A stretch of DNA of 64,000 nt from a virus. A program made the position numbers and the translations under genes. Location of the stretch: positions 1-64,000 of the IMG/VR virus record IMGVR_UViG_3300043122_000207; one strand, given 5' to 3'. The notes below the pieces were generated by a model. The model was given only the letters and a program-made list of their open reading frames with translations, made no database searches and had not been told where the DNA came from. Positions 5,591-58,748 of this stretch are shown here, piece after piece (within the stretch, counting starts at the first letter, position 1; each line of letters starts with the position of its first letter).

Positions 5591-7594
5591 TTATGTTCTG
5601 GGTTGATTACTTAATCTCAACATAACCGACATGTTTGAAACATTTTCGACATCACCACTGAATAACGATACCCTTAAAGTGGGGTTGTCTATTTCTATAT
5701 TGACAAATTTTTTAGCCGAATTACTACCTGATGGTATAGTTATATTGTCGAGTATATACCATCCATTTGCTGTTTCATCATAGTATTCTATAAATAAACC
5801 TATGTCTTCTGTATTGGATGAACTCTGACCTTTATTTGCTATTATGGTATTTATATATTTTTGATATGGCACATATATCTCTGTTTTTTCTTGTGGACCA
5901 AGTATTAAGGATGTACCCAACATAAACACAACATCTCTATCACCCTCTATAACCGTGGCTGATTCTAACTTGAGGATTACGTTCATATTAGAAACATTTT
6001 CATAATCACCACTCACTAATGATATCCTGAATATATCGTTATCTATTTCTTCTAAAACATCGTATGTCACATTGTTCTCATCAACCTGTAATTCAAATGT
6101 TTTCAATACATCCCAATTACCGGTGTTTTCATTTAAAATATCCAATGAAAATATCAAGTTAGATGAGTTTGTTGAACTTACACCTTTATTGACAGTTAAT
6201 GTTTTAATTTCTGCATCATAAGGTAACATCATTTCTGTGTGACTTTGTGGTCCAGTTATTAGTTCACCACCCAAAGAAAAAACCGCATCTTTAGTGAAGA
6301 TTGCTCCTACACCACCCGATGCCGTAGAGTTTATGGTTATTTCTCTAGTTGTGGGGTCCATTTCAAATTCTATATTGTTACCTGGTGAAAGATAATCTAT
6401 TAGGTTACTATTTAATGTTTCGATATTTTCTATGGTTACAATCCCCGATGGTTCGTCATATGAGAGATTTATATTGTTCCCAGCCCCAAGATAATCGATT
6501 AACCTATCTTTTTCTAAAAGTTCACTTGCATCAATAGTTAGTGACTCTGTTTCTGGATCATATATCAAATTGATATTATCTGATGAATTGAATGCAGAGT
6601 CCAGCTGACCCCTTTTTAATAGGTTACCATTTGTATCGATTGTGATTTCTTCTATTTCTGGGTCGTAACTTATGTCAATATCATCTCCGCCTTTGAAATG
6701 ATCTATGATTCTATTTTTTAATAAAAGATCACTTGCATCAATAGTTAAGATCCCAGTTTCTGGATCATACTCAAGATTTATATTGTCAGATGAATCAAAA
6801 AAATTATTTATTTCATTCTTTCTTAATAGATCTGGTGCACCTATGGTGATCTCGCCTGTTTCTGTATCCTCTGATAACGTTATGTTTTCACCTTGATTAA
6901 TAAGTTCATTTATACGTGAACTCATTATTTCGAAAACATCCTTTATATTATCAAATTTTATTTCTCCAGTATCTGGATCATAAGTTATAGAGATGTCGTC
7001 ACCAGCAATGAGTTTATCATTGATCAAACTCGATATATGATCACCCGTTAATGAACTTTCTATACTTATAGTGTTTGTGGTTTCATCTAAGGTTACACTA
7101 ACCATATCATCGGTATCTATCACATTACCAATGAGTGAGACTATATCTTCATCGGTTCTCTCATTTCTTATTACTATCTGATCATTGGTATCATCATAGG
7201 TTATGTTGATATTGTCTGTGCCTTTGAGTGTAGGTCCTATTAAATCTTGTATCTGCTGGGTGGATATTGGTTTGCCAGTTATGGTTATCTTATTGGTTGC
7301 AGAATCAAAATCAACCAATATATTGTCACCGGCAACTAGAGTCTCAGAAAGTGCTTCGCCTAATTCTCCACCACCAACACCTGCTCTCTGCCAAGTATCC
7401 TTAGCTGTATCTTTTTTCTGCCAAAGAGCTTTTGTATTATGTTCCATTAAAAATGTACCAGGTGGGGAATTATTTACTTTTGGGTCAGAGGATAGATTTG
7501 GGTCCCCTGTATATTGAGACCCATGTAGTAAAACTATTCTCTTTGGTAATTCTGTATTAATAAAGTTTATAAAACGTTCTAAATCAATAGGCAT
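5591..7594 (-). CDS. Repeat-containing tail fibre/appendage-like protein
   Basis: Many copies of DNINLxYDxxTGxITI spaced ~35-40 aa apart, then two tandem ~120-aa C-terminal domains; GGAGG RBS. Confidence 0.65.
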   Translation of the reverse strand: MPIDLERFINFINTELPKRIVLLHGSQYTGDPNLSSDPKVNNSPPGTFLMEHNTKALWQKKDTAKDTWQRAGVGGGELGEALSETLVAGDNILVDFDSATNKITITGKPISTQQIQDLIGPTLKGTDNINITYDDTNDQIVIRNERTDEDIVSLIGNVIDTDDMVSVTLDETTNTISIESSLTGDHISSLINDKLIAGDDISITYDPDTGEIKFDNIKDVFEIMSSRINELINQGENITLSEDTETGEITIGAPDLLRKNEINNFFDSSDNINLEYDPETGILTIDASDLLLKNRIIDHFKGGDDIDISYDPEIEEITIDTNGNLLKRGQLDSAFNSSDNINLIYDPETESLTIDASELLEKDRLIDYLGAGNNINLSYDEPSGIVTIENIETLNSNLIDYLSPGNNIEFEMDPTTREITINSTASGGVGAIFTKDAVFSLGGELITGPQSHTEMMLPYDAEIKTLTVNKGVSSTNSSNLIFSLDILNENTGNWDVLKTFELQVDENNVTYDVLEEIDNDIFRISLVSGDYENVSNMNVILKLESATVIEGDRDVVFMLGTSLILGPQEKTEIYVPYQKYINTIIANKGQSSSNTEDIGLFIEYYDETANGWYILDNITIPSGSNSAKKFVNIEIDNPTLRVSLFSGDVENVSNMSVMLRLSNQPRT

Positions 7595-7617
7595 TTAATT
7601 TTATACCTCCTTTATCA

Positions 7618-7844
7618 TGTAGATTTTACTTGTACATTTAAACTAGTTATATCTAAATCAGTGTTCACTTCCTTCTCATAAACTGTACCTTATTATTATT
7701 ATTTACTAAAGTTATAGCTTTACTTATCGTTGATATGGGATTACTCTCACTACCATCACCATTTGTATCATCACCATTTACTGCATCCACATAAATTATA
7801 TTGTCATAAGTTAATTCTTCTTTATTTATCTTTATAGTTGGCAT
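7618..7844 (-). pseudogene. Internally deleted remnant of a paralog of 43679..45511
   Basis: AGAGGTG RBS + MPTIKINKEELTYDNIIYVDAVNGDDTNGDGSESNP (matches N-terminus of the 610-aa ORF) joined out of frame to GTVYEKEVNTDLDITSLNVQVKST* (matches its C-terminus); in-frame stop at 7670-7668. Confidence 0.85.
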
Positions 7845-7862: not shown

Positions 7863-9254
7863 CTATGTTAATTGAATTCCACCTGAAGTGCCATATGTCT
7901 CTTCTGGTATAATATAAATATCTTCAGGTATATTTGAAATCACACTATCATTTACTAGATCACCATTTATAGGTATTAGTTTATCTTCCTTTGTGACACC
8001 TATCATTATATCACTTATATTTTTTATAACAGATTTGAAAGTGTAACCTGTATGGATATATTCACCTTCATATGTGTTGCCGATTGGATTACTACCACCC
8101 CATAAAAATAGTTTATCAGAATTATCTATAGCTAAAGATATCCCACTCCAAGTTGATGTGAATGCTTTTTTCCAATTAGAATTCCTGGGTGTGTAATCCA
8201 ATGTTTCACCACCACCATATCCACTAAACCACAAATTGATATACCCTTCTTTGGTTACATAATAACCATAACTAGAAGAAGCAAAATCATAATTGGTTAT
8301 ATTGTTGGTCAAAGGTATGGTTTCTAAAACTGTAGCTTTTCCATCTTCTCCCCACCCCATAATTGAACCATCTTCTTTTTGTGCTATTGCAGAAGAATGA
8401 CTTGTTTTGATGTCCACATAGTTATTACCAACTGGTAAATCACTCACGATACCATGTTCGTCATCCCCCCAACTTACAAGAGAACCATCTTCTTTTAGCC
8501 CAACGAAAAAACCGTCACCTGATTCTATTTTCACAAAATCGTTATCAGAGGGGGTATCACTTATTTGATCATTATCATTGTACAATGACCAACATTCTAC
8601 AGTACCATTTTCTCTTAAAGCCGACGCATTCATATTTTTAGCAGATACGTGGATAAAATCATTACCTTCTGGTACGAAATAAAACTCCGGGAGTGTATCA
8701 ACATCTTCTGGGGGGATTCCATTATCATCTATGAATTGCTGTTTTGTCATACTCATTGGTCCTACACCATCACCCCAACCCTCAATAGAACCGTCACTTT
8801 TAATTCTTATTCCATATGAATTTCCTATATCAAATTTTCTTAATTCTAGGTTTGTGTATTCTAAAAGCAAGTTAGCTCTTGCAAAATAATTTAATTTATT
8901 ATCACCTATACCGTCAGTTTTTACATACAGTTTATCTAAATTGTCGATTGGTATTGTCATTTGTCTTCCAGGTTTTAATATCATAACCTGTTTTTTTGCA
9001 TCACCAATAAATAGATCGTGATCGTTATCTGGGTCAGCCTGTAAGAGTATTTCTCTTGTCATCTTATATGTCGGTGATAATGGTCTGGCAGTAGTGTCAA
9101 CATCTACACTGTCACAGTAGGTGAAATTACTTTCATAATTGGTTTCTTCTACAGTTAATACATTCCATTCTCTTTTTTCGTTATCCCATCTAGCTGGCAA
9201 AGCACGACCTCTTAAATCAGTTGGTAGTTCTTCACCGTTATATTGTAAAGTCAT
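7863..9254 (-). CDS. RCC1-like repeat protein with N-terminal domain paralogous to 9269..9655
   Basis: Degenerate RCC1 repeats (ALRENGTVECW, GLKEDGSLVSWGDD, QKEDGSIMGWG); N-terminal 125 aa align with the upstream ORF. Confidence 0.7.
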   Translation of the reverse strand: MTLQYNGEELPTDLRGRALPARWDNEKREWNVLTVEETNYESNFTYCDSVDVDTTARPLSPTYKMTREILLQADPDNDHDLFIGDAKKQVMILKPGRQMTIPIDNLDKLYVKTDGIGDNKLNYFARANLLLEYTNLELRKFDIGNSYGIRIKSDGSIEGWGDGVGPMSMTKQQFIDDNGIPPEDVDTLPEFYFVPEGNDFIHVSAKNMNASALRENGTVECWSLYNDNDQISDTPSDNDFVKIESGDGFFVGLKEDGSLVSWGDDEHGIVSDLPVGNNYVDIKTSHSSAIAQKEDGSIMGWGEDGKATVLETIPLTNNITNYDFASSSYGYYVTKEGYINLWFSGYGGGETLDYTPRNSNWKKAFTSTWSGISLAIDNSDKLFLWGGSNPIGNTYEGEYIHTGYTFKSVIKNISDIMIGVTKEDKLIPINGDLVNDSVISNIPEDIYIIPEETYGTSGGIQLT

Positions 9255-9268
9255 ATTAAAAGCCTCCT

Positions 9269-9655
9269 TTATAATCTGTTTACTCTAGCCATAATATCTA
9301 AATTTAAATCGACTGATGATTTCTTTTTAAAATAAACCTCACTTAAATCACCTATAGGTATACTAAAAGACATATCTGGTTCTAAAACCATAGTTTGATT
9401 ATTTTTGTTACCTATATAAATATTTTCTTCATTTTCTTTACTTGATTGTACCATAACTTCTGTTACTGGAATAACCGTATCACTTATTGGTTTCTTATCA
9501 AAAGAAACCTCCAATGAGTCAATATATAACCCATTGGAAGCATAATTACTTTCTTCGGTTGATACTATATCCCAATCTTTTTTCTTATTATTATATCTAG
9601 AAGGTATGGCTATTCCACTATCACTTCTTTTAATTAGTTCTCTATTATAAGCCAT
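9269..9655 (-). CDS. Hypothetical structural protein, paralog of N-terminus of 7863..9254
   Basis: IPSRYNNKKKDWDIVSTEESNY vs LPARWDNEKREWNVLTVEETNY; IYIGNKNNQTMVLEP vs LFIGDAKKQVMILKP. Confidence 0.65.
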   Translation of the reverse strand: MAYNRELIKRSDSGIAIPSRYNNKKKDWDIVSTEESNYASNGLYIDSLEVSFDKKPISDTVIPVTEVMVQSSKENEENIYIGNKNNQTMVLEPDMSFSIPIGDLSEVYFKKKSSVDLNLDIMARVNRL

Positions 9656-9671
9656 TTTTATAAACCTCCAT

Positions 9672-12506
9672 TTATTGAATTCTATGGGATGTTGTCAAAA
9701 CAGGTGGATATAGATAATGCATGTTTGCGGGATAGACATCTCCACTGTAATTAAGATCTTGACCTCTCATGAATTTGAGTAACAGACCATCCATCCTTGG
9801 TCTATCATAATTTTCTAAACCATCTAATATGGATTCATCAAAAACACCATAGTTCGCATAATATTTAAAATAAAGATATGATAACATATCATCCCCGAAA
9901 AGTTCATACCTTTCTTCTATCTCTTTTAGACTATTAAAGTTTTCAGGGTTTTCAAATAAGATTTTATGATAATCGGGTAAAGCTTCTATTATATCTCTAT
10001 CGATGTTTTCTATATCGATTATCTGTTCTCTGTAATCTGTGTCGAAATGGTTTTTATCAAGCTTTTCATCATAACCATTATAATATAATCCCAAATAACC
10101 ATTATGGTCTATATCTATATAACGGAAATGTTTTAATAACCCACCATCAAATTTAGCAGCTCTTAATCCTGTAGATTTAATGTTGGTTAATAAAGATCCG
10201 TTCCACTTATCATTGTCGATAAATTCATTCATATATGAATAAGATAAATAGTCTTTTAAATCCTCATTATCGGAGCTTGAATAAATAGGTGAAGGGTTAG
10301 GGTTTGATAAACTTAAAAGTGTATCGTTTGGTTTATTTTCATCATCTCTTAAAAAACCAACCATTATTATCTTATCACCCACATCCACATTATTGATGAA
10401 TTTCATTATCAAAATTTCTCTATTGTCACCATAACCTAAATTGGTGGTTTCTGTTAAGATTTCATAATCACCAGGGTCCAAATATTCTCCATTACAATAA
10501 AACTCAGGATTATAAATATCCCCAACAGTATTTTTTAAAATTATTGAATTAGGGTATTTTTCATTAACACCGTATTCTTCCATTATCATATTGCGGTCTT
10601 TTAATATAACTCTAAACTCATTTGATTTATCAATGTATCTATCTACCAATTCATCTTTATATTTATCTACATTTATAAAGTGCTGGATTCTATTATCTAA
10701 TTTTTCGACACCAATATAAATGTAAGTGTATCTATCTTTTTTTATAACATCAGTATCTATTGTAAAAAGTTTATCTTTATAGAAAAGTAGAGGCTCACTC
10801 AATGCTGGGTTCTCTACCTTTATTTCAAATTTAGGATACATATATTTTTCACCATTTATATTTTCTTTAGTATAATCTAAATCAAATATGGTGAAAGTGT
10901 GTTCTAAATCCAAACCTGTATTATCAGAAATCCTATCTCTTATATGGTCGTTATCTGTATCCACATCGATAAATCTATCATTATTTGATATCTTTTTAGT
11001 GTAGTCATACCCTATAAAATGGTTCTGATAGTATATTTCATAGTTGGCATTTATGTTATCTTCTTTTAGTCTTCTTTTTAAAGGTATAACTTTTTTATCT
11101 TCTTTTATCTCATTTAGATAACCAGTCATTGTGATAATTTCTGCATGATCAGGTTTAAAATGGAATATCATAATATAAAGGTTAGTTCTTAACTGTACTA
11201 TATTGTATTCGTCTTCATTCATTTTTATTCCATTGTGGTAGAAGTTAACACCATTTAAAGTGAAGAAATCTGAATTCAAAAATATAAAGGAATTATATTT
11301 ACCAAGTGTCACAAAGGAATTGATTATATAATCTTTTCTTTTTAAATTTACGGTTAAAAAGTCTTTATTATTAAGCCATTTTAAAAGATGTTCTGTTATG
11401 TGTTCTGTTCTATTTACATTTATATAGTGTTGTAAAGGTGGGTAAAGTTTTTCTATACCTATATAAACGTATGTGTAATAAGGGTCCTTAATCAATATTC
11501 TTTCATCAGTGTATAATTTACCATTAAAGAATAATTCGACATCTTCTAAAGAGGGGTTTTTAATCTTAATAACAAATTTAGGTTGTTTGAATTCCCTTTT
11601 AGAATCAACAAAAAAATCACGACTTATTGGTTCTTCTGTAACATCTAAATCTTTGACTTTATAGGTTTTAACTTTTTCTAAACCCATATCATCTTTTATT
11701 TTGTCATACAACCCAACATCGTTATTTATTAAAGTTTCTATTATCTTTTCATTAGATAAATCATCCCTTTTACTTAAAGCTAAATCTTTAATTGGTATTG
11801 GGTGTGGTTTATCTTTAATTAAAAGATTATCCCCATATTCTTTTATAGTGTCGGTATAATAAGCATCCACGCTGTATAAATAAATGTAGACCTTATCGGC
11901 TGCCGATATGATAGATTGTATTTCTATCATATTTTCATTTATCTTTTCTATTCTCAATGGGTAGAACATATTATCTTTTAATATTATTAGATAATCACTA
12001 AAAGCATAATCGGTAGATGATAGTATACCGGTATCGGTTAACTCCAGAAAATCACCTTCAAGGTAATAGTCATCTTTTAGGGTCGATAGTTTAAGATATT
12101 CGTCAGTTTCTACTTTAGCCAAACTATCTTTAACTCGGCTAGTTCTAGCAGTATGGTATATAAAGGTTAATTTAGTGAAGGTAAATGTCTCTAAAATCTC
12201 ACCATAGATGAAGCATCTGCCATCTAAAAATTTATGTTCTAAACCGAGTTCTTCTAAAGATTTATTATCAAGATAGATTTCATATCTTTTTTTATCTGGT
12301 GGGTAAGGGAAAGAAATAACTTTACCCTCGTAAGGTTTTAATAAATCTTCTATAGTGTCGAGTTTTATATCACCAAAATAAAAGTCTTCTTCTGTCTCAT
12401 ATATTTTAAAAAATCTATCTGCAATTTTTAAATCTTTATACTCTGTTATATACTTTTCAAGTTCGTCTTTAAAATCATTTGAAAAGTGATCTATTTTTTC
12501 AATCAA
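9672..12506 (-). CDS. Large putative virion structural protein with internal duplication
   Basis: 944 aa, TTG start; PKF.IK..NP.L....LF...KL.T......KD.YTY.YIG.EKL...QH.INV repeated twice. Confidence 0.6.
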   Translation of the reverse strand: MIEKIDHFSNDFKDELEKYITEYKDLKIADRFFKIYETEEDFYFGDIKLDTIEDLLKPYEGKVISFPYPPDKKRYEIYLDNKSLEELGLEHKFLDGRCFIYGEILETFTFTKLTFIYHTARTSRVKDSLAKVETDEYLKLSTLKDDYYLEGDFLELTDTGILSSTDYAFSDYLIILKDNMFYPLRIEKINENMIEIQSIISAADKVYIYLYSVDAYYTDTIKEYGDNLLIKDKPHPIPIKDLALSKRDDLSNEKIIETLINNDVGLYDKIKDDMGLEKVKTYKVKDLDVTEEPISRDFFVDSKREFKQPKFVIKIKNPSLEDVELFFNGKLYTDERILIKDPYYTYVYIGIEKLYPPLQHYINVNRTEHITEHLLKWLNNKDFLTVNLKRKDYIINSFVTLGKYNSFIFLNSDFFTLNGVNFYHNGIKMNEDEYNIVQLRTNLYIMIFHFKPDHAEIITMTGYLNEIKEDKKVIPLKRRLKEDNINANYEIYYQNHFIGYDYTKKISNNDRFIDVDTDNDHIRDRISDNTGLDLEHTFTIFDLDYTKENINGEKYMYPKFEIKVENPALSEPLLFYKDKLFTIDTDVIKKDRYTYIYIGVEKLDNRIQHFINVDKYKDELVDRYIDKSNEFRVILKDRNMIMEEYGVNEKYPNSIILKNTVGDIYNPEFYCNGEYLDPGDYEILTETTNLGYGDNREILIMKFINNVDVGDKIIMVGFLRDDENKPNDTLLSLSNPNPSPIYSSSDNEDLKDYLSYSYMNEFIDNDKWNGSLLTNIKSTGLRAAKFDGGLLKHFRYIDIDHNGYLGLYYNGYDEKLDKNHFDTDYREQIIDIENIDRDIIEALPDYHKILFENPENFNSLKEIEERYELFGDDMLSYLYFKYYANYGVFDESILDGLENYDRPRMDGLLLKFMRGQDLNYSGDVYPANMHYLYPPVLTTSHRIQ

Positions 12507-35682: not shown

Positions 35683-36189
35683 ATGAGAAAGATTTATAAT
35701 GTTGTGGTATTTAATATTGTATATTATCTGTTGATATTGGGTAGTTATTTAAGAGGGAATATTGAATATCAAATAAAAGATGGAAGAAAGATTAGAGTTA
35801 TTAAAAATGATTTGATTGTTAGATGGTATGGATTTGGGTATGGTGTTGCAGTATTGGATAGGGGAGATATATTTATGGAGGAAAATTTAAATGATGATAT
35901 AAATGATTTTGTTAAATTTCATGAGATGGGTCATATAATAAATGGTCATTATAAAGATGAAAGGAATTTAAGTGATGAATTGGAAGCTGATAGTTATGCT
36001 ATTGGTGAGTTATTTAAATTAGGATATAATAAAAAAGAGATAGAGAATATAATAAGAGAGATGATGAATAGGAGTATTAGATCATTTATAAATAGTGATC
36101 TAGAAAAAGAAGATAAAGAATATTATATTGATTTATTAGAAAAAGAAAGAAAAGAGAGAATAGAAAATATAAAAAAGCAGAGAAATTAA
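35683..36189 (+). CDS. Zincin metallopeptidase-like protein (ImmA/IrrE-like) with N-terminal hydrophobic segment
   Basis: FHEMGHII (HExxH) and downstream ELEADSYA. Confidence 0.7.
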   Translation: MRKIYNVVVFNIVYYLLILGSYLRGNIEYQIKDGRKIRVIKNDLIVRWYGFGYGVAVLDRGDIFMEENLNDDINDFVKFHEMGHIINGHYKDERNLSDELEADSYAIGELFKLGYNKKEIENIIREMMNRSIRSFINSDLEKEDKEYYIDLLEKERKERIENIKKQRN

Positions 36190-36207
36190 TCTCTGCTTTA
36201 TTTTTTT

Positions 36208-36648
36208 TTATATAATAAACTGATTTAAATCATCGATATCATAATATTCTAGAGTCATCTTATGAGTCTTCTTTAAGGATTTCTGAGCAAGCTCTGTATA
36301 TACTTTAGATACTGGCACACCTAAATTAATTGGTTTATCATATTCATTTAATAATTTATAGTATCTTTCACCAGCACATTTATTACATATTTTTTCTGTT
36401 AAACAACCCATAGGATATCTTATCTCAATGTCTTTACCTATATATTTTTTTATATTATCATAATCTAAAAGGGTGAGTTCTTTTCCATCAACCATATAAG
36501 CATCTATATATTCACTTTGGTTATCTTCAGTCACATGGACAGTTCTATACTTTTTAGTACCACAATCAGTACCATGTTTATCAGCATATAAACCCTGTAA
36601 TACTGAACCACCTCTTTTTTTCTGGTATCCACCCATTGCAGTATTCCT
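36208..36648 (-). CDS. rpoC: RNA polymerase beta' subunit, exon 3
   Basis: RNTAMGGYQKK (bridge-helix TAxxGY), DCGTK, IRYPMGC...ICNKCAG Zn site. Confidence 0.9.
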   Translation of the reverse strand, partial: RNTAMGGYQKKRGGSVLQGLYADKHGTDCGTKKYRTVHVTEDNQSEYIDAYMVDGKELTLLDYDNIKKYIGKDIEIRYPMGCLTEKICNKCAGERYYKLLNEYDKPINLGVPVSKVYTELAQKSLKKTHKMTLEYYDIDDLNQFII

Positions 36649-36926
36649 CGTTACCTTCATATAGATTCGTTAAATCTATACAGTTCTTTTATGAACTTCT
36701 CATGTTCACACATGAAGTCGAGACTATATCTTTACCATATGTATTTAAACACTTAGGTATTCCGCTTTTCCAACTTACTTAAGTTGTACTCCCTAGAAGG
36801 GATAGTCGTTGAACTACACCTATCGATATAGCTGCTGATTATCTCACACCCTTTAGGATATGACATTTTCCAGCAATTAACGGAATCATAATATATATTC
36901 TTTCGAATATACACGCCTAGAAATTA
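36649..36926 (-). ncRNA. Group I intron (278 nt, no ORF) in RNAP beta' gene
   Basis: Minus-strand core: P AATTGCTGGAAA (36878-36867), Q AATCAGCAGC (36840-36831), R GTTCAACGACTA (36814-36803), S AAGATATAGTCT (36732-36721); 5' exon ends in U, intron ends in G; P10 AUUUCU pairs with 3' exon AGGAAU; splicing gives GGYFRA|RNTAMGGY. Confidence 0.9.
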
Positions 36927-37856
36927 AGCCCGAAAGTACCCACCTAATATCATAGAAGAGGATACTTTATGAATATCTGATTTCTTTAAACCATCCACAT
37001 AGTTAGATGTTGTTACATGGAATTTAGTTGAGTTTAAATTAGCAGGTATAGCACCAACCATAAGTGAACTCTTTTTAAATGAGTTACCTAATGAAGGACC
37101 TGCACCAGATAGATAGTGCTGCATTTGTGGATTATCTTTATAAACTTCTTTTACTTTTTCAATTAGTTTTTCTTCTATCTCACTTACTATTTCTGTATCA
37201 CCATTTTCGATAGCCTCTTTATTATCTTTAATTAGTTTATCTCTTAACTTTTTAATAGATGGATCTACATTCATCATATCGACACTTAAAGAAGGATTAA
37301 CAAAAGAAGACATCCTAAGTGAAAAATCCTCAAATCTATTAAGGAGCGATTTGTATTCTTTCATATCTAATTCTTTATTTAATACTTTAGCACCTATATA
37401 GTTTAGATGGTATTGGATTTTCTTTTCAGTAAAGGTATCGTTTTGATAGTCATAACCTACTGGATCAAATATTATTTTATTGATAAGTAGTTTACCCAAA
37501 GTAGTCTCTGTCTTTTTATTGATACCTTTATAATCACCTTTTTTTAAAATAACTTTATCATTTAATTCATATATCTTATCACGGTTTGGGAACTTACCTA
37601 AACCTAAATCACGCAATATATATTTGACTGTGAAGTCTTCTTTTTTAGCATTTAGTATTTCTGAGACTTTATCTCTTTTAACTATCTTATTATCTTTAGT
37701 AGGTGGCAAAGACATAGAATATAAACATTGAGCTGATTCAAGATCAATACCTTTATTATTAGTTCCTTTATTATCGAATACATAAAGTGGATCATCTATC
37801 TTTTCTGCACATTCTAAATTAGCCTCTTCGGAGAATACACCGCGATTACCAGTTTT
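36927..37856 (-). CDS. rpoC: RNA polymerase beta' subunit, exon 2
   Basis: Frame open from 37856 (KTGNRGVFSEEAN...QCLYSMSLPP) through ORF 36924..37715 to SNYVDGL...GGYFRA; 930 nt = 310 codons. Confidence 0.9.
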
Positions 37857-38534
37857 CTTAATTTGGACTATATCTTTAACATATGGTTTAAAACCACTTA
37901 GTTACCTTGTGCTTCCATTTATACCTTTCCTTGTATAAACGTACATTACTCGGTTATACTTAAATTAAGTATCCTTTCATTAGTCTCTGAACATATTGAT
38001 TAATTAAATCCTCTTCCTTTTTTAGATGGGTTTTTATCTTTAGCCTTTTTTTTTCACCTGAGATTGGATATGTGGTTATTTAATAACACACCGTCTAGAT
38101 GGTCTATTTCTTTCTTTTTTTTCTTGTTGTTGGGGATGAATGTTTTAGCAACAAGCATATCAACCTGGAAGTCTCTTTTTGAACCACCATCACAATTTAG
38201 TTCAACATATAATTTACCATCTTCTTTTAAAGTAGTTGGTAGAAACCCCTGTTCTAATATACCGTAAACATCCCCTCTTTCTGAGAGATAATAATCTTTT
38301 CTTTTAATATCTAAAAAATCAATAAACTCCCACTTTAAACCTTTTTTATCAAACATAGTTTATCACATCCTTTAAATATTTGTTCCCATCTATTTAAATT
38401 CAATATGCACAGGATTACCCAATAGGGTTTCCCTGTTAGCCTTATAATTAATAAGACACCGCTGGTTAGGCGTTCTCAAGGTATTCTCCTTTTAAGGAGC
38501 CAACCATATTTCTATGGTAGGGAGACAAAACTTT
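37857..38534 (-). mobile_element. Group I intron (678 nt) with HNH homing-endonuclease ORF, inserted right after the catalytic DYDGD codons
   Basis: P TAACAGGGAAA (38438-38428), Q AATCCTGTGC (38416-38407), R GTTCAGAGACTA (37992-37981), S AAGATATAGTCC (37876-37865); P1 GGAGAU/GUCUCC; P10 AGUUUU/AAAACU; splicing gives GDYDGD|KTGNRGVFS. Confidence 0.93.
38054..38356 (-). pseudogene. Intron-encoded NUMOD4/HNH homing endonuclease, probably degenerate
   Basis: Y.LSERGDVY...LVAKTFIPN...IDHLDG..LNNHISNLR*; TGA falls where HNH_3 has Trp; AGGATGTG RBS and upstream AACA-N6-TA. Confidence 0.75.
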
Positions 38535-39944
38535 ATCTCCATCGTAATCACCATTCATTCCCCAAAGATGTAAATTAGAAAAATTCATAGTTTCAGCAAA
38601 CATAGAAGAAACCTTAGATTCAAATTCATCCACATTATTTTGTAATTCAGGGTCATTTAGTATATCATCTATAACAGGATAGTATTTAAAGTCCATACCA
38701 TCCATTCTAACTTCTCTGGTTTCTATAGTAGATAAAACATGTAATTTATTTGGTACGGTATTGAATTGATCCATTACAGGATAACGGGTTGTGATATCAT
38801 GTTTTTGGTCTAGCTCTACTCCAAAGTAAGTTGCTATATAAATTAAGTCTGTAAGAGTAAGTGGTCTATTAAAGCTCTCCCACTCCCCATCTATTTTTTG
38901 TTCACCTTTTATTTTGATTGGGTTATCTTTGCCAGGTACATTAATAAAGTTAAATCTCTCACCCCAACTATCCACATATGTATCTATTAAATCCTGTAGT
39001 TCCTGTCTTGAAAACTCTTCTTCAAATTCTTCTTCACTACAATCTAGTTCACCATTATCAAACTTCTGTCTTAAATACTTTTTCATATTATTTATTACAA
39101 AAGGAGAAAACATATCAGCTAAAGCACCAAGTGGTAGACCTGCTGTATCTAGATTAACTGGCCCTTCACCAAAGTTTTCACTATCAAAATGTGGTGCAGA
39201 TAATACAAGGCGTGATGTGTAATCAACATTACGACTCATTACCTTACGCCGCATAACGCCATCTTTACCAAATACTTTATTCATTAAAAAATCAAGTAAC
39301 TCAACCAATAAAAGTTGTACCCTAAATCTTACACCGTGTTTATCAAATAAGGGGTTATCTTTACCGTCTTTAATAATTGAAGTTAAAGTAAGTAACTTTT
39401 TATACTTCTCATTTAATATATCAAGTGAGATGTGACCTGAATCTTTAGTATTAATATCACGGAAAGCAAGAGGTAGTATTAAGAACTTATCTATAAAGAT
39501 TTCATTTCTTCCCTTGGTTTTAACCACCTTTTTTAAATCCTTTAATATTAAAGAATCATCTTCTTTTACCTTTAGGTTTTTTAAGTTTATCTTATTATAG
39601 TTTTCATAGAAAAACTCTATACCTGTCCCACCATTTTCATCTTCTATTAAAGAACCTGATTTAGATATCTTGTAGTTTTTACGACCAGCTAGAAGATCAT
39701 CTATTTTTCTCATTGACCTTTTAAAGATTCTTGAATAAATTAAAGGGTGTAAATACTTACCGTCCAATTTAACATAACCCATCTTCTTTCTTTTTTCTCT
39801 CATTGATGAACCAAATATATCATCGCTCATTAATCCCTTTTTATTAGGTGTTTGTGAACTACCCTCAAATAAGAAGGGTTCTGTAACTTCTTTAGATTTG
39901 TGGTTTCTTATATAGTTATTAAAATCTGTTAACTTCTCTTTCAT
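38535..39944 (-). CDS. rpoC: RNA polymerase beta' subunit, exon 1
   Basis: GLMSDDIFG...MGYVKL...HPLIY; GKDGVMRRKVMSRNVDYTSRLVLS; TRYPV; GMNGDYDGD catalytic triad; 1410 nt = 470 codons. Confidence 0.92.
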
Positions 39945-39950
39945 TTAACT

Positions 39951-40697
39951 TTACCTCCCTTTATAATAGTTCTGGAGTTCTAATATATCCCTGCCGAATT
40001 TCTTTTCAGGATTTGTTTCACTCATTTTCTTTAATTTATTTTTATCTATATTATAACTTAAAACTTCTGCTTTAGCTGAATCTACATCTATTTCATATTC
40101 ATCTAAAATATCTCTTACATTCTTTGGTATAGATTTATCTTTATTTTTATCCTGTTTCATATTTTGGAATCTCTGTTCTTCAGAGCGTTTTCTAATATCT
40201 AAGGCATCCTCAATAAGTTTTGTGTAGGTTTGTTTAGAAAAAATTCTAATAAAGTATTTAATCCTTTCGATATCTAGATACTTAGTTAAATGTCTTAAAT
40301 GATCATCACTTGTCATATCTAAAATAAGCTCTGCAATATTATCGATATTTTCCTGGTGTTCTTTTTCTGTGGGCGGAATCCTTATTGCGTTATCATCTAC
40401 TTTGTCTTCATGATAATTTAAAACATTATCTTCTACATATTCATTTGCTATAATACCAACCATAAAAAGTAGTGGTTCTAAATCCTCTTCTAAATTAAAC
40501 TTATTATAGTTTCTGTGTTTAAAAGTGCTCCTATCAAAATATTTTTCTTCATCTGATTTTTCCCTATTTAAATCTTTAATAAAATCAAAGGTGTTTTTTA
40601 CTATAGAACTTAAAGCAAGAAGTGATGCAATCAATACAACTGTCAATTCTAAATTTAAAAATTCTTTCATTAATATACCCCCTTTTATAGATATCAT
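39951..40697 (-). CDS. Membrane-anchored hypothetical protein
   Basis: N-terminal TM LELTVVLIASLLALSSIV; probable start MKEFLN after AAGGGGG RBS. Confidence 0.6.
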   Translation of the reverse strand: MISIKGGILMKEFLNLELTVVLIASLLALSSIVKNTFDFIKDLNREKSDEEKYFDRSTFKHRNYNKFNLEEDLEPLLFMVGIIANEYVEDNVLNYHEDKVDDNAIRIPPTEKEHQENIDNIAELILDMTSDDHLRHLTKYLDIERIKYFIRIFSKQTYTKLIEDALDIRKRSEEQRFQNMKQDKNKDKSIPKNVRDILDEYEIDVDSAKAEVLSYNIDKNKLKKMSETNPEKKFGRDILELQNYYKGR

Positions 40698-57593: not shown

Positions 57594-58748
57594 ATGACAA
57601 TAGAGATAAACACAATTCAAGGTTTATTAGATATTAAAAACGATTTATCAGCTGATTACGTTTTAACCGACGATATAGATTTAAGTGGTTTAAGTAATTG
57701 GGAACCTATTTTTAATCATAAAGCAGCAACAGCTGAAGATGGGTTTTTTAAAGGAACACTTGATGGACAGGGTCACAAAATAATGAATTTGTCCGGGCAA
57801 TATATTTATGAAGAGGACATGTGGCGTGCTTATTTTGAAAAAAATAATTTAGAGGATTTTGAGAAAGTTAAAAACGATCTTAAAACTGGAGAATTTGCTG
57901 ATGATGAGCATTTATCTATATCTTTAGAAATGTTTTTTGATATGGTGGTCATGGGTATCTTAGGTGATAATGATACAGTCTCTCCTTTTTTATCACCAGA
58001 TACGGTGACACTTATAACAGACAATAATAATAATGATTATTTTTTAGACGATACTATAGGTGAAAGACCAACTGAAGCAAAAATTATATTTAACAGTTGG
58101 CCTCTGCAAGATGAGATGGAGGGTTATTTTGGTCAGTTTGATGCTGATGGTGATAGTGGTATCACATTGGAAACAGATGCTATTCTTACTTATTTTGAAG
58201 ACAATTATTCAAGATGTGAGATTATTTATACCTTGCCAGATGATCCAGCAGAGGACCCACAGATAACCAATTTTTCTGGTAACTTTGCACCGAATGGCAC
58301 TGATAGTATAGTGCCACCGAGAAGTTTATTTATGGGTTTATTAAATGCTGAAATTAAAAATTTAATTTTAGAGAATGTAGATATTGCTGGTTTAGATTCA
58401 TCTGGACCTGATATGTTAGGTAATCCAGAGGTAGATTTTGTAAGTGTATTGTCACACATGTCATGCAATAGCACTTTTAAAAATATCAAAATTACTGGTA
58501 CTGTTGCTGGAAAATGTTATGTTGCAGCTTTATCAGGTATAGGATATAAAAAAAATCAAGATGACAAGATATTAATAGATAATGTTGTTTTTGATGGAGA
58601 TATATTTTCCAGAAGTAATTTTGCTGGTTTTATCACAAATGTTATACCAGTTGATCAAAATGTAACTCTTGATGTTGATGATATCGAAATAAATGAAAGC
58701 TATGTGCAGGGTAGGTTTACTATTTTAGAACAGCCAGTAGCAGTATAA
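57594..58748 (+). CDS. GLUG/beta-helix-like protein, N-terminal part
   Basis: DLSADYVLTDDIDLSG..NWEPI...FKGTLDGQGHKIMNL; IKNLILENVDI; paralogous to 47105..48187. Confidence 0.65.
   Translation: MTIEINTIQGLLDIKNDLSADYVLTDDIDLSGLSNWEPIFNHKAATAEDGFFKGTLDGQGHKIMNLSGQYIYEEDMWRAYFEKNNLEDFEKVKNDLKTGEFADDEHLSISLEMFFDMVVMGILGDNDTVSPFLSPDTVTLITDNNNNDYFLDDTIGERPTEAKIIFNSWPLQDEMEGYFGQFDADGDSGITLETDAILTYFEDNYSRCEIIYTLPDDPAEDPQITNFSGNFAPNGTDSIVPPRSLFMGLLNAEIKNLILENVDIAGLDSSGPDMLGNPEVDFVSVLSHMSCNSTFKNIKITGTVAGKCYVAALSGIGYKKNQDDKILIDNVVFDGDIFSRSNFAGFITNVIPVDQNVTLDVDDIEINESYVQGRFTILEQPVAV

Follow-up and report, generated by a model that had tools for sequence, protein, structure and literature searches.

Organization of the Locus

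The 64,000-nt window analyzed here (positions 1 to 64,000 of the IMG/VR virus record IMGVR_UViG_3300043122_000207) carries at 39944-36208, on its minus strand, three coding pieces that resemble consecutive parts of the β′ subunit of a multisubunit RNA polymerase (RNAP). These pieces are parted by inserts of 678 nt (insert A) and 278 nt (insert B). Read without splicing, they appear as open reading frames (ORFs) of 492 codons (from the ATG at 39944), 263 codons, and 150 codons, with gaps between them. A Shine-Dalgarno sequence precedes the first piece, and a terminator hairpin follows directly after the TAA stop codon (36208-36210) of the third one (Table 1). Inserts A and B are very probably two group I introns with the junctions given in Table 1. 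The locus would then represent a single gene for a 926-aa β′-like catalytic subunit of a virion-type multisubunit RNAP, and only the doubly spliced mRNA would encode this protein.

Table 1. Features of the RNAP gene locus, with exons and introns as assigned in this work
Feature	Coordinates	Strand	Remarks
Shine-Dalgarno sequence GGGAGG	39954..39959	-	9 nt upstream of the ATG at 39944, read from the sequence
Exon 1, 470 codons	38535..39944	-	β′ N-terminal part; ends with GGA GAT of GDYDGD
Intron A, group I, 678 nt	37857..38534	-	Directly after the GDYDGD codons
Truncated HNH homing-endonuclease ORF, 100 aa	38054..38356	-	In the P6 loop of intron A
Exon 2, 310 codons	36927..37856	-	phrog_2962 positions 72-294
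Intron B, group I, 278 nt	36649..36926	-	RF00028 match; contains no ORF
Exon 3, 146 codons plus TAA	36208..36648	-	phrog_2962 positions 296-423
Bidirectional intrinsic terminator hairpin	36174..36199	.	Terminator scan: 10-bp stem, T run on both strands

Exon 2 has neither a start codon of its own nor a ribosome-binding site at its first codon, where its homology begins, and the 47 codons that precede its first ATG are conserved in Fusobacterium phage JD-Fnp1, phage AR9, and two metagenomic relatives, L008 (Logan SRR17165157, 71 to 73% identical) and L013 (a 199.5-kb contig with 54 to 65% protein identity). Reading through the end of exon 1 adds a tail of 22 aa, for which no homologue was found. 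Exon 1 is present in a single copy in the genome (G000; 194,604 bp, 100% complete according to CheckV). The expectation that automated annotation would miscall such a gene is borne out by the 492-aa read-through product of exon 1, which is found in a public protein collection, in a 99% identical form (P0001), as a "hypothetical protein."

The Joined Product and Its Junctions

Joining the three exons leaves the frame open and yields a protein of 926 aa (470 + 310 + 146). These exon lengths, the coordinates behind them, and the rule that a U precedes each intron and a G ends it had been proposed in an earlier note on this DNA, and all of them hold. The closest homologue from an isolated phage, gp14 of JD-Fnp1 (GenBank accession number ON464759, 930 aa), has the same fused architecture of N-terminal and middle parts and no introns, which makes it an intron-less reference. 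The 926-aa product aligns with it over the full length, with 37% identity and no gap at either junction. Exon 1 alone is 37.6% identical to the JD-Fnp1 protein over 100% of the exon length (and 31% identical to AR9 g145), and the JD-Fnp1 match runs on in the same frame into exon 2. At junction A (a slash marks the splice site), the window protein reads GMNGDYDGD/KTGNRGVFSEEANLEC, with GDYDGD/KTGN ungapped against GMDGDLDGD/KNIARPVFSDEANEEC of JD-Fnp1. At junction B, ILGGYFRA/RNTAMGGY is aligned with LVGGYSRG/KAPEVGGA.

Several relatives are uninterrupted at junction B. Like JD-Fnp1 gp14, AR9 g264 is contiguous across it. In L008, exons 2 and 3 form one 457-aa gene (MILGGYFRA/KNTAVGGY), and L008 is therefore an intron-B-minus allele. 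Of the further relatives, P0122 (60% identity, 448 aa) is unsplit, and P0123, P0124, and P0126 stop at this site.

The exact positions of the splice sites deserve a comment. Because intron A begins with AAA and exon 2 with AAAA, shifting both sites of junction A together by 1 to 3 nt gives an identical mRNA; the U-before, G-last rule selects 38535/38534 and 37857/37856. An alternative in-frame 3′ site of intron B, after G36658 (9 nt upstream), would add the residues KVT, which no intron-less homologue has.

The gap-free colinearity at both junctions, together with an E value of 2.6e-18 for intron B in a search with the group I intron model RF00028 of Rfam, is far more than chance would give. 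It is extremely improbable that the gaps are instead inteins, insertions of mobile DNA with loss of gene function, or errors of assembly. Apart from the empty whole-window Rfam scans (see below), nothing specific speaks for such an origin. Inteins are excluded because the gaps contain stop codons in the frame of the gene. Further evidence against this explanation comes from the full-length match of intron B to RF00028, from orthologous inserts that occupy these sites in assemblies made independently from other samples, and from the presence of the read-through product P0001 in the public collection.

Identity of the Gene Product

The earlier assignment of the three pieces to consecutive parts of β′ agrees with the PHROG profiles, which match the pieces in consecutive order: phrog_2986 is found on piece 1, and adjoining segments of phrog_2962 are found on pieces 2 and 3 (E values for these RNAP families of 2.8e-58, 2e-27, and 3.8e-27). 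The catalytic DxDGD motif is present as GDYDGD at the end of exon 1. In AR9, alignments identify only g145, the N-terminus of the virion RNAP β′ subunit, and g264, a virion RNAP subunit; an alignment with the β′ of AR9 had been suggested in the earlier note. The first 50 aa of exon 2 match exon 3 of g145, and g264 covers the window protein from about residue 560 on. Since g145 ends about 50 residues past DYDGD, the window gene fuses β′-N and β′-mid of the AR9 type, which in AR9 are encoded by separate and distant genes. Thus, the window gene is the orthologue of AR9 β′-N plus β′-mid (g145 plus g264), fused as in the JD-Fnp phages. Its designation as β′ stands to that extent, although the product may represent only part of β′. 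As an orthologue of AR9 virion RNAP subunits, the product could be packaged into virions and have a role in early transcription.

Other database searches added little. Pfam searches detected no significant RNAP domain in the exons, the L008 orthologue, AR9 g264, or JD-Fnp1 gp14. Exon 3 and the exon 2-3 protein of L008 gave no meaningful result in sequence searches of the PDB, a megablast search of the locus against isolated phages gave no match, and a scan of IMG/VR with exon 2 revealed no close relatives.

Structural comparison is more informative. The uninterrupted exon 2-3 protein of L008 was modeled with AlphaFold (predicted local distance difference test [pLDDT] score, 66.9), and Foldseek matches the model to the β′ subunit of C. 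difficile with an E value of 2.7e-11. VIA-align 2 places residues 9-430 of this model on residues 472-925 of Escherichia coli β′ (Z 12.7, root mean square deviation 11.1, 355 residues aligned), a range that starts right after the NADFDGD motif. Junction B maps to the middle of a 36-residue helix predicted, with low confidence, at model residues 293-328, which by interpolation corresponds roughly to E. coli residues 778-815 and so overlaps the bridge helix (residues 769-805). Intron B had been placed just before the bridge helix; the model suggests that it lies, approximately, within the bridge-helix coding segment.

Intron B

Both gaps contain P-, Q-, R-, and S-type core elements on the minus strand, as described previously. 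In intron B, these are located at 36878 (P), 36840 (Q), 36814 (R), and 36732 (S). In a search limited to a short stretch, RF00028 matches intron B along the entire model (positions 1-253) with 71.3 bits (cut-off, 50). The U-G pair that is conserved in P1 of this model falls on the U with which exon 2 ends (U36927) and the G of the guide sequence, and the terminal G is G36649, just before exon 3. This match appears once the search is confined to 391 nt, and a second search gave it as well; Rfam cmscan runs found no group I intron, either at the gathering threshold on the whole 64,000-nt window or at an E value of up to 10 on the 4.2-kb segment 36000-40200. The 71-bit match is lost in these large scans because the speed filters fail in this AT-rich DNA, and its loss is an artefact of the filters, not absence of the intron. 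The Rfam scan that had been suggested as a check thus supports the prediction for intron B in its short form; the whole-window version is empty, and intron A gives partial matches only. For the same reason, the lack of a covariance-model hit in a whole-window scan is an unsafe refutation of such introns, and here it would have led to their rejection wrongly.

The comparison with L013 provides further support. This contig has an orthologous intron at site B, whose P6 loop is enlarged by an insertion of about 270 nt. Covariation is seen in P1, where the exon C-2/guide G pair changes to G/C and an A/U pair changes to U/A, and compensatory changes are also found in P2, P3, P5, P8, P9, and P9.2. 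In an RNAalifold consensus of the two introns, 22 of the 85 pairs are compensatory and no pair is broken; in column shuffles, the compensatory pairs average 3.7 and never exceed 7. P1 itself is weak and has an internal G-G mismatch. The P10 pairing of AUUUCU with exon AGGAAU, proposed in the earlier note, is present in the sequence, but it adds little because it is not conserved in the L013 orthologue; it is weak evidence, and the P1 covariation is the better support.

Intron A

The pairings proposed for intron A are found in the sequence as described. P1 is formed within GGAGAU/AAAGUUUUGUCUCC by exon GGAGAU and the guide GUCUCC (38526-38521), a perfect 6-bp helix with U-G at the cleavage site. 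P10 pairs AGUUUU (38532-38527) with AAAACU at the start of exon 2, again over 6 bp, and the terminal G is G37857. The R element GUUCAGAGACUA (37992-37981) and the S element AAGAUAUAGUCC (37876-37866) are exact, P4 consists of CAGGG...CCUGUG, and the P4-P6 core spans about 38436-38365. A 303-nt ORF, which lies in the P6 loop, and additional hairpins between P3′ and P8 split the RF00028 model here.

An orthologue of intron A occupies the same site in L008 (7716-8364); its P6 loop also holds an ORF, but a different one. Outside the ORFs the two introns align well, and the P1 U-G pair, the terminal G, and the P10 elements are present in both. Of the 78 pairs in their consensus fold, 19 are compensatory and none is broken, whereas column shuffles yield on average 2.7 and at most 7 compensatory pairs. 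P2, P2.1, P4, P5, P6, P7.1, P7.2, and P8 are all kept. Three of the 6 pairs of P2 are compensatory, as are several each in P2.1, P6, P7.1, P7.2, and P8. Extra hairpins of the P7.1/P7.2 type and an ORF in a peripheral loop are features of subgroup IA-type phage introns, including those of multi-intron genes such as Twort orf142 and those in T4 td, nrdB, and sunY, which the window's introns resemble in these respects, although their host genes differ.

Four ORF-less introns in jumbo-phage contigs from IMG/VR (L023, L048, L037, and L032) have a 5′ domain in common with intron A (GAACGCNUAACCAGCGGUGUCU...GGCUAAC). They reside in the NADFDGD codons of other phages and score 31 to 37 bits against RF00028 (E values of 1e-7 to 1e-9), below the cut-off, which suggests that this intron subgroup may be poorly covered by the Rfam model. 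In L037 (about 790-1125), the splice site AAU GCC GAC U/UC GAU GGC GAU lies within NADFDGD of another phage's β′ gene. The 15-mer TAACCAGCGGTGTCT is found in IMG/VR at 31 loci, just four of which are the above introns; the others are chance matches. A terminator scan flags ACGCCUAACCAGCGGUGU and its U-rich tail at 38456-38473 (minus strand); this is the conserved 5′-domain hairpin of the intron family and not a likely terminator.

Splicing and Its Alternatives

If the inserts are group I introns, each would fold into a group I core in which the guide sequence pairs with the end of the upstream exon and leaves a U-G wobble at the cleavage site. An external guanosine would then cleave the 5′ site, and the exons would be ligated after the terminal G. 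By sequence criteria, both introns would be expected to splice, on their own, during infection. That both inserts are group I introns at the derived sites, with a colinear β′-like product, as the earlier note had claimed, agrees with the RF00028 match, the covariation, and the intron-less homologues.

Several points weigh against this interpretation. In intron A, just 8 nt (AAAUUAAG) separate P7 from the terminal G and there is no P9, whereas L008 has a 6-bp P9 hairpin at this place. Selection of the 3′ splice site may be weakened, because only these 8 nt are left; P9 is usual, but not strictly defining, for group I introns. RF00028 yields two partial matches for intron A, of 11.6 bits (model positions 60-138, the P4-P6 region) and 13.4 bits (the 3′ part), which are correct in order and strand but fall under the Rfam cut-off, and its HNH gene is truncated. 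For each intron, covariation was counted between two sequences only, and no counterpart of P10 was found in the L013 site-B intron. The bridge-helix placement of intron B comes from a helix with a pLDDT score of <50 and from interpolated structural ranges. Given the short distance between P7 and the terminal G, the splicing competence of intron A is somewhat less certain than the rest and is the least secure part of the interpretation.

The short 3′ end, the decayed endonuclease, and the weak RF00028 matches are also what could be expected if intron A were a splicing-dead relic. The gene would then be broken, or its parts would be made as separate polypeptides, namely, the 492-aa read-through product and a product from an internal ATG, such as the one at 37715. 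A β′ subunit made of separate polypeptides is natural in most jumbo phages (PMC7598289). However, the natural split of AR9 lies about 50 to 65 residues downstream of DYDGD, not at the motif, and an internal start would leave out the 47 conserved codons of exon 2. All core helices of intron A still pair, with the compensatory changes relative to L008 described above, and both exons are intact, exon 1 being the sole copy in a complete genome. A dead intron A is therefore very unlikely.

A different possibility is that both inserts are genuine group I introns that self-splice inefficiently and depend on a protein cofactor of the phage or host, such as a maturase-like activity or an RNA chaperone. 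Protein-assisted splicing of group I introns is established in other systems, and the reduced 3′ domain of intron A and the weak, mismatched P1 of intron B would fit it. On the other hand, self-splicing in vitro is the general behavior of group I introns from phages, and the locus has no maturase-type ORF, the truncated HNH gene being the only intron ORF. For AR9, mature mRNAs were determined experimentally according to a preprint (bioRxiv 10.1101/2020.12.14.422802), which also counts against a cofactor requirement. Such dependence is unlikely, if less so than the loss of splicing by intron A.

Intron Distribution among Relatives

The introns of this gene show a patchy distribution (Table 2), the pattern expected from mobile introns.

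Table 2. Intron sites in the RNAP gene of the window and its relatives
Genome	Site 390	Catalytic motif	Site B
Window	Empty	DYDGD/K (intron A)	Intron B
L008	Empty	NG/DYDGD, plus intron A orthologue at DYDGD/K	Empty
L013	Intron	DYDG/D	Intron
L010 (83% identity)	Intron	Contig ends	Contig ends
AR9	Intron	DYD/GD	Empty
JD-Fnp1	Empty	Empty	Empty

The orthologous gene of AR9, g145 (GenBank accession number KU878088), has a coding sequence joined from three pieces, with the homing-endonuclease genes g146 and g147 in the gaps. It is annotated with two group I introns, one of which resides inside the same DYDGD motif as in the window. The AR9 intron in the catalytic motif interrupts GDYD/GD, 6 nt upstream of site A, and the other one follows ...TRYPI, which corresponds to residue 390 of the window protein. 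The AR9 genome contains at least 13 RF00028 matches above the cut-off; there are none anywhere in the JD-Fnp1 genome.

Metagenomic relatives display further variants. In L008 (7396-8364), two group I introns surround a 15-nt micro-exon, GATTATGATGGAGAT, which encodes exactly DYDGD; the upstream intron (7402-7700) scores 60.8 bits against RF00028, with the U-G pair on U7401. L013 (ENA ERZ27266011 k141_152717) has three introns in this gene, at 7204-7672, 7909-8655, and 9589-10127. They are located after ...SRYPI (the AR9 site), at GDYDG/D (3 nt from site A, with an intron of a different type), and at site B, and two of the three hold inserts with opposite-strand ORFs. A further contig, L011, also has an intron, but it ends too soon to fix the site.

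Group I introns in conserved motifs of jumbo-phage RNAP genes, which the earlier note mentioned, are thus documented for AR9 g145 and also for PhiPA3. In the latter, a group I intron that encodes an active HNH nickase (gp210) is found right after the conserved aspartates of the virion RNAP β gene gp211/209 (Birkholz et al. 2024, PMC11620839). The likeness to intron A is in the combination of a group I intron and an HNH gene beside conserved aspartates of a jumbo-phage virion RNAP gene. However, PhiPA3 belongs to a different phage family, the subunit is β and not β′, and the PhiPA3 endonuclease is intact and was shown to nick a competing phage's gene, in contrast to the truncated HNH gene of the window. 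A preprint on Staphylococcus jumbo phages states that introns often disrupt RNAP subunit genes of jumbo phages, at sites that vary between relatives (10.1101/2020.12.14.422802), the same variability as that seen among the window, L008, L010, and L013; in those phages, exon boundaries were predicted by protein alignment only, and the hosts and the exact sites differ from the window's.

Intron-split polymerase genes are already published for AR9-like and phiKZ-like phages. Particular to the window are the intron at site B in the bridge-helix segment, the fused gene, and an intron A that lacks P9. The locus adds a well-documented case, with both intron-plus and intron-minus alleles, of mobile group I introns that target the most conserved codons of jumbo-phage RNAP genes. 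In the public record the gene is split into unrelated "hypothetical proteins," and to reconstruct how phages of this group transcribe their genes, one needs the 926-aa protein that splicing yields. According to a hypothesis cited in a 2020 review (PMC7598289), intron activity gave rise to split RNAP genes. Neither intron A nor intron B is located at the canonical RNAP split site, and the unsplit β′-N/β′-mid gene bears marginally on that hypothesis.

Within this clade, group I introns are found in the catalytic motif at NG/DYDGD, DYD/GD, DYDG/D, and DYDGD/K, and in other phages at NAD(U/UC)F. It is conceivable, if rather doubtful, that the approximately 18 nt encoding the DxDGD loop of the virion RNAP β′ subunit serve as a multisite landing pad for repeated independent invasions, of which intron A would be a late-stage survivor. 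If so, these invasions might be driven by homing endonucleases that act as weapons between coinfecting phages, as for PhiPA3 gp210. Intron A would then still splice accurately without an endonuclease or P9, with the 3′ site chosen via P10 alone.

The HNH Remnant and Other Intron Cores in the Genome

The ORF in the P6 loop of intron A is similar to HNH homing endonucleases, but only over their N-terminal part, and it does not have the full HNH catalytic motif together with a DNA-binding C-terminal part. It matches positions 10-95 (of 138) of phrog_959 with an E value of 8e-17 and positions 140-224 (of 423) of phrog_59; the Pfam domain HNH_3 is detected with 22.6 bits, under its cut-off of 24.8. 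The ORF is 33% identical to the N-terminus of a 247-aa HNH protein encoded in a DNA polymerase intron of the same genome. Its end reads ...NNHISNLR-TGA, with the TGA in place of a Trp that is conserved in the family. By these comparisons, the ORF is a decayed homing-endonuclease gene, a remnant and not a functional member of the family. With its endonuclease gene decayed, intron A has probably lost the ability to move by itself.

Reading the TGA as Trp does not rescue the ORF, as read-through adds only 17 unrelated residues. Recoding of TGA as Trp is also at odds with stop codon usage: among ORFs of at least 200 codons in G000, 100 end with TAA, and TGA and TAG end 12 of the 124 each. A further point against recoding is that ARAGORN finds no tRNA or transfer-messenger RNA genes in this genome.

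Matches to group I core motifs at 7139-7149 and 57871-58005 of the window lie inside long intact ORFs and are due to chance. Elsewhere in the genome, the DNA polymerase gene contains two group I-type cores (G000:C1, about 78700-79660 and 80470-81740, minus strand; locus L049), each with an HNH ORF. One of these ORFs (L049:2333-3076, minus strand) is the intact 247-aa HNH gene mentioned above. The other one (L049:4007-4942, plus strand) is interrupted once, by an in-frame TAG in place of the conserved Trp (SNLE-stop-VTTREN), and its homology runs on for 120 codons beyond this stop; it is at this Trp position that the HNH ORF of intron A has its TGA.

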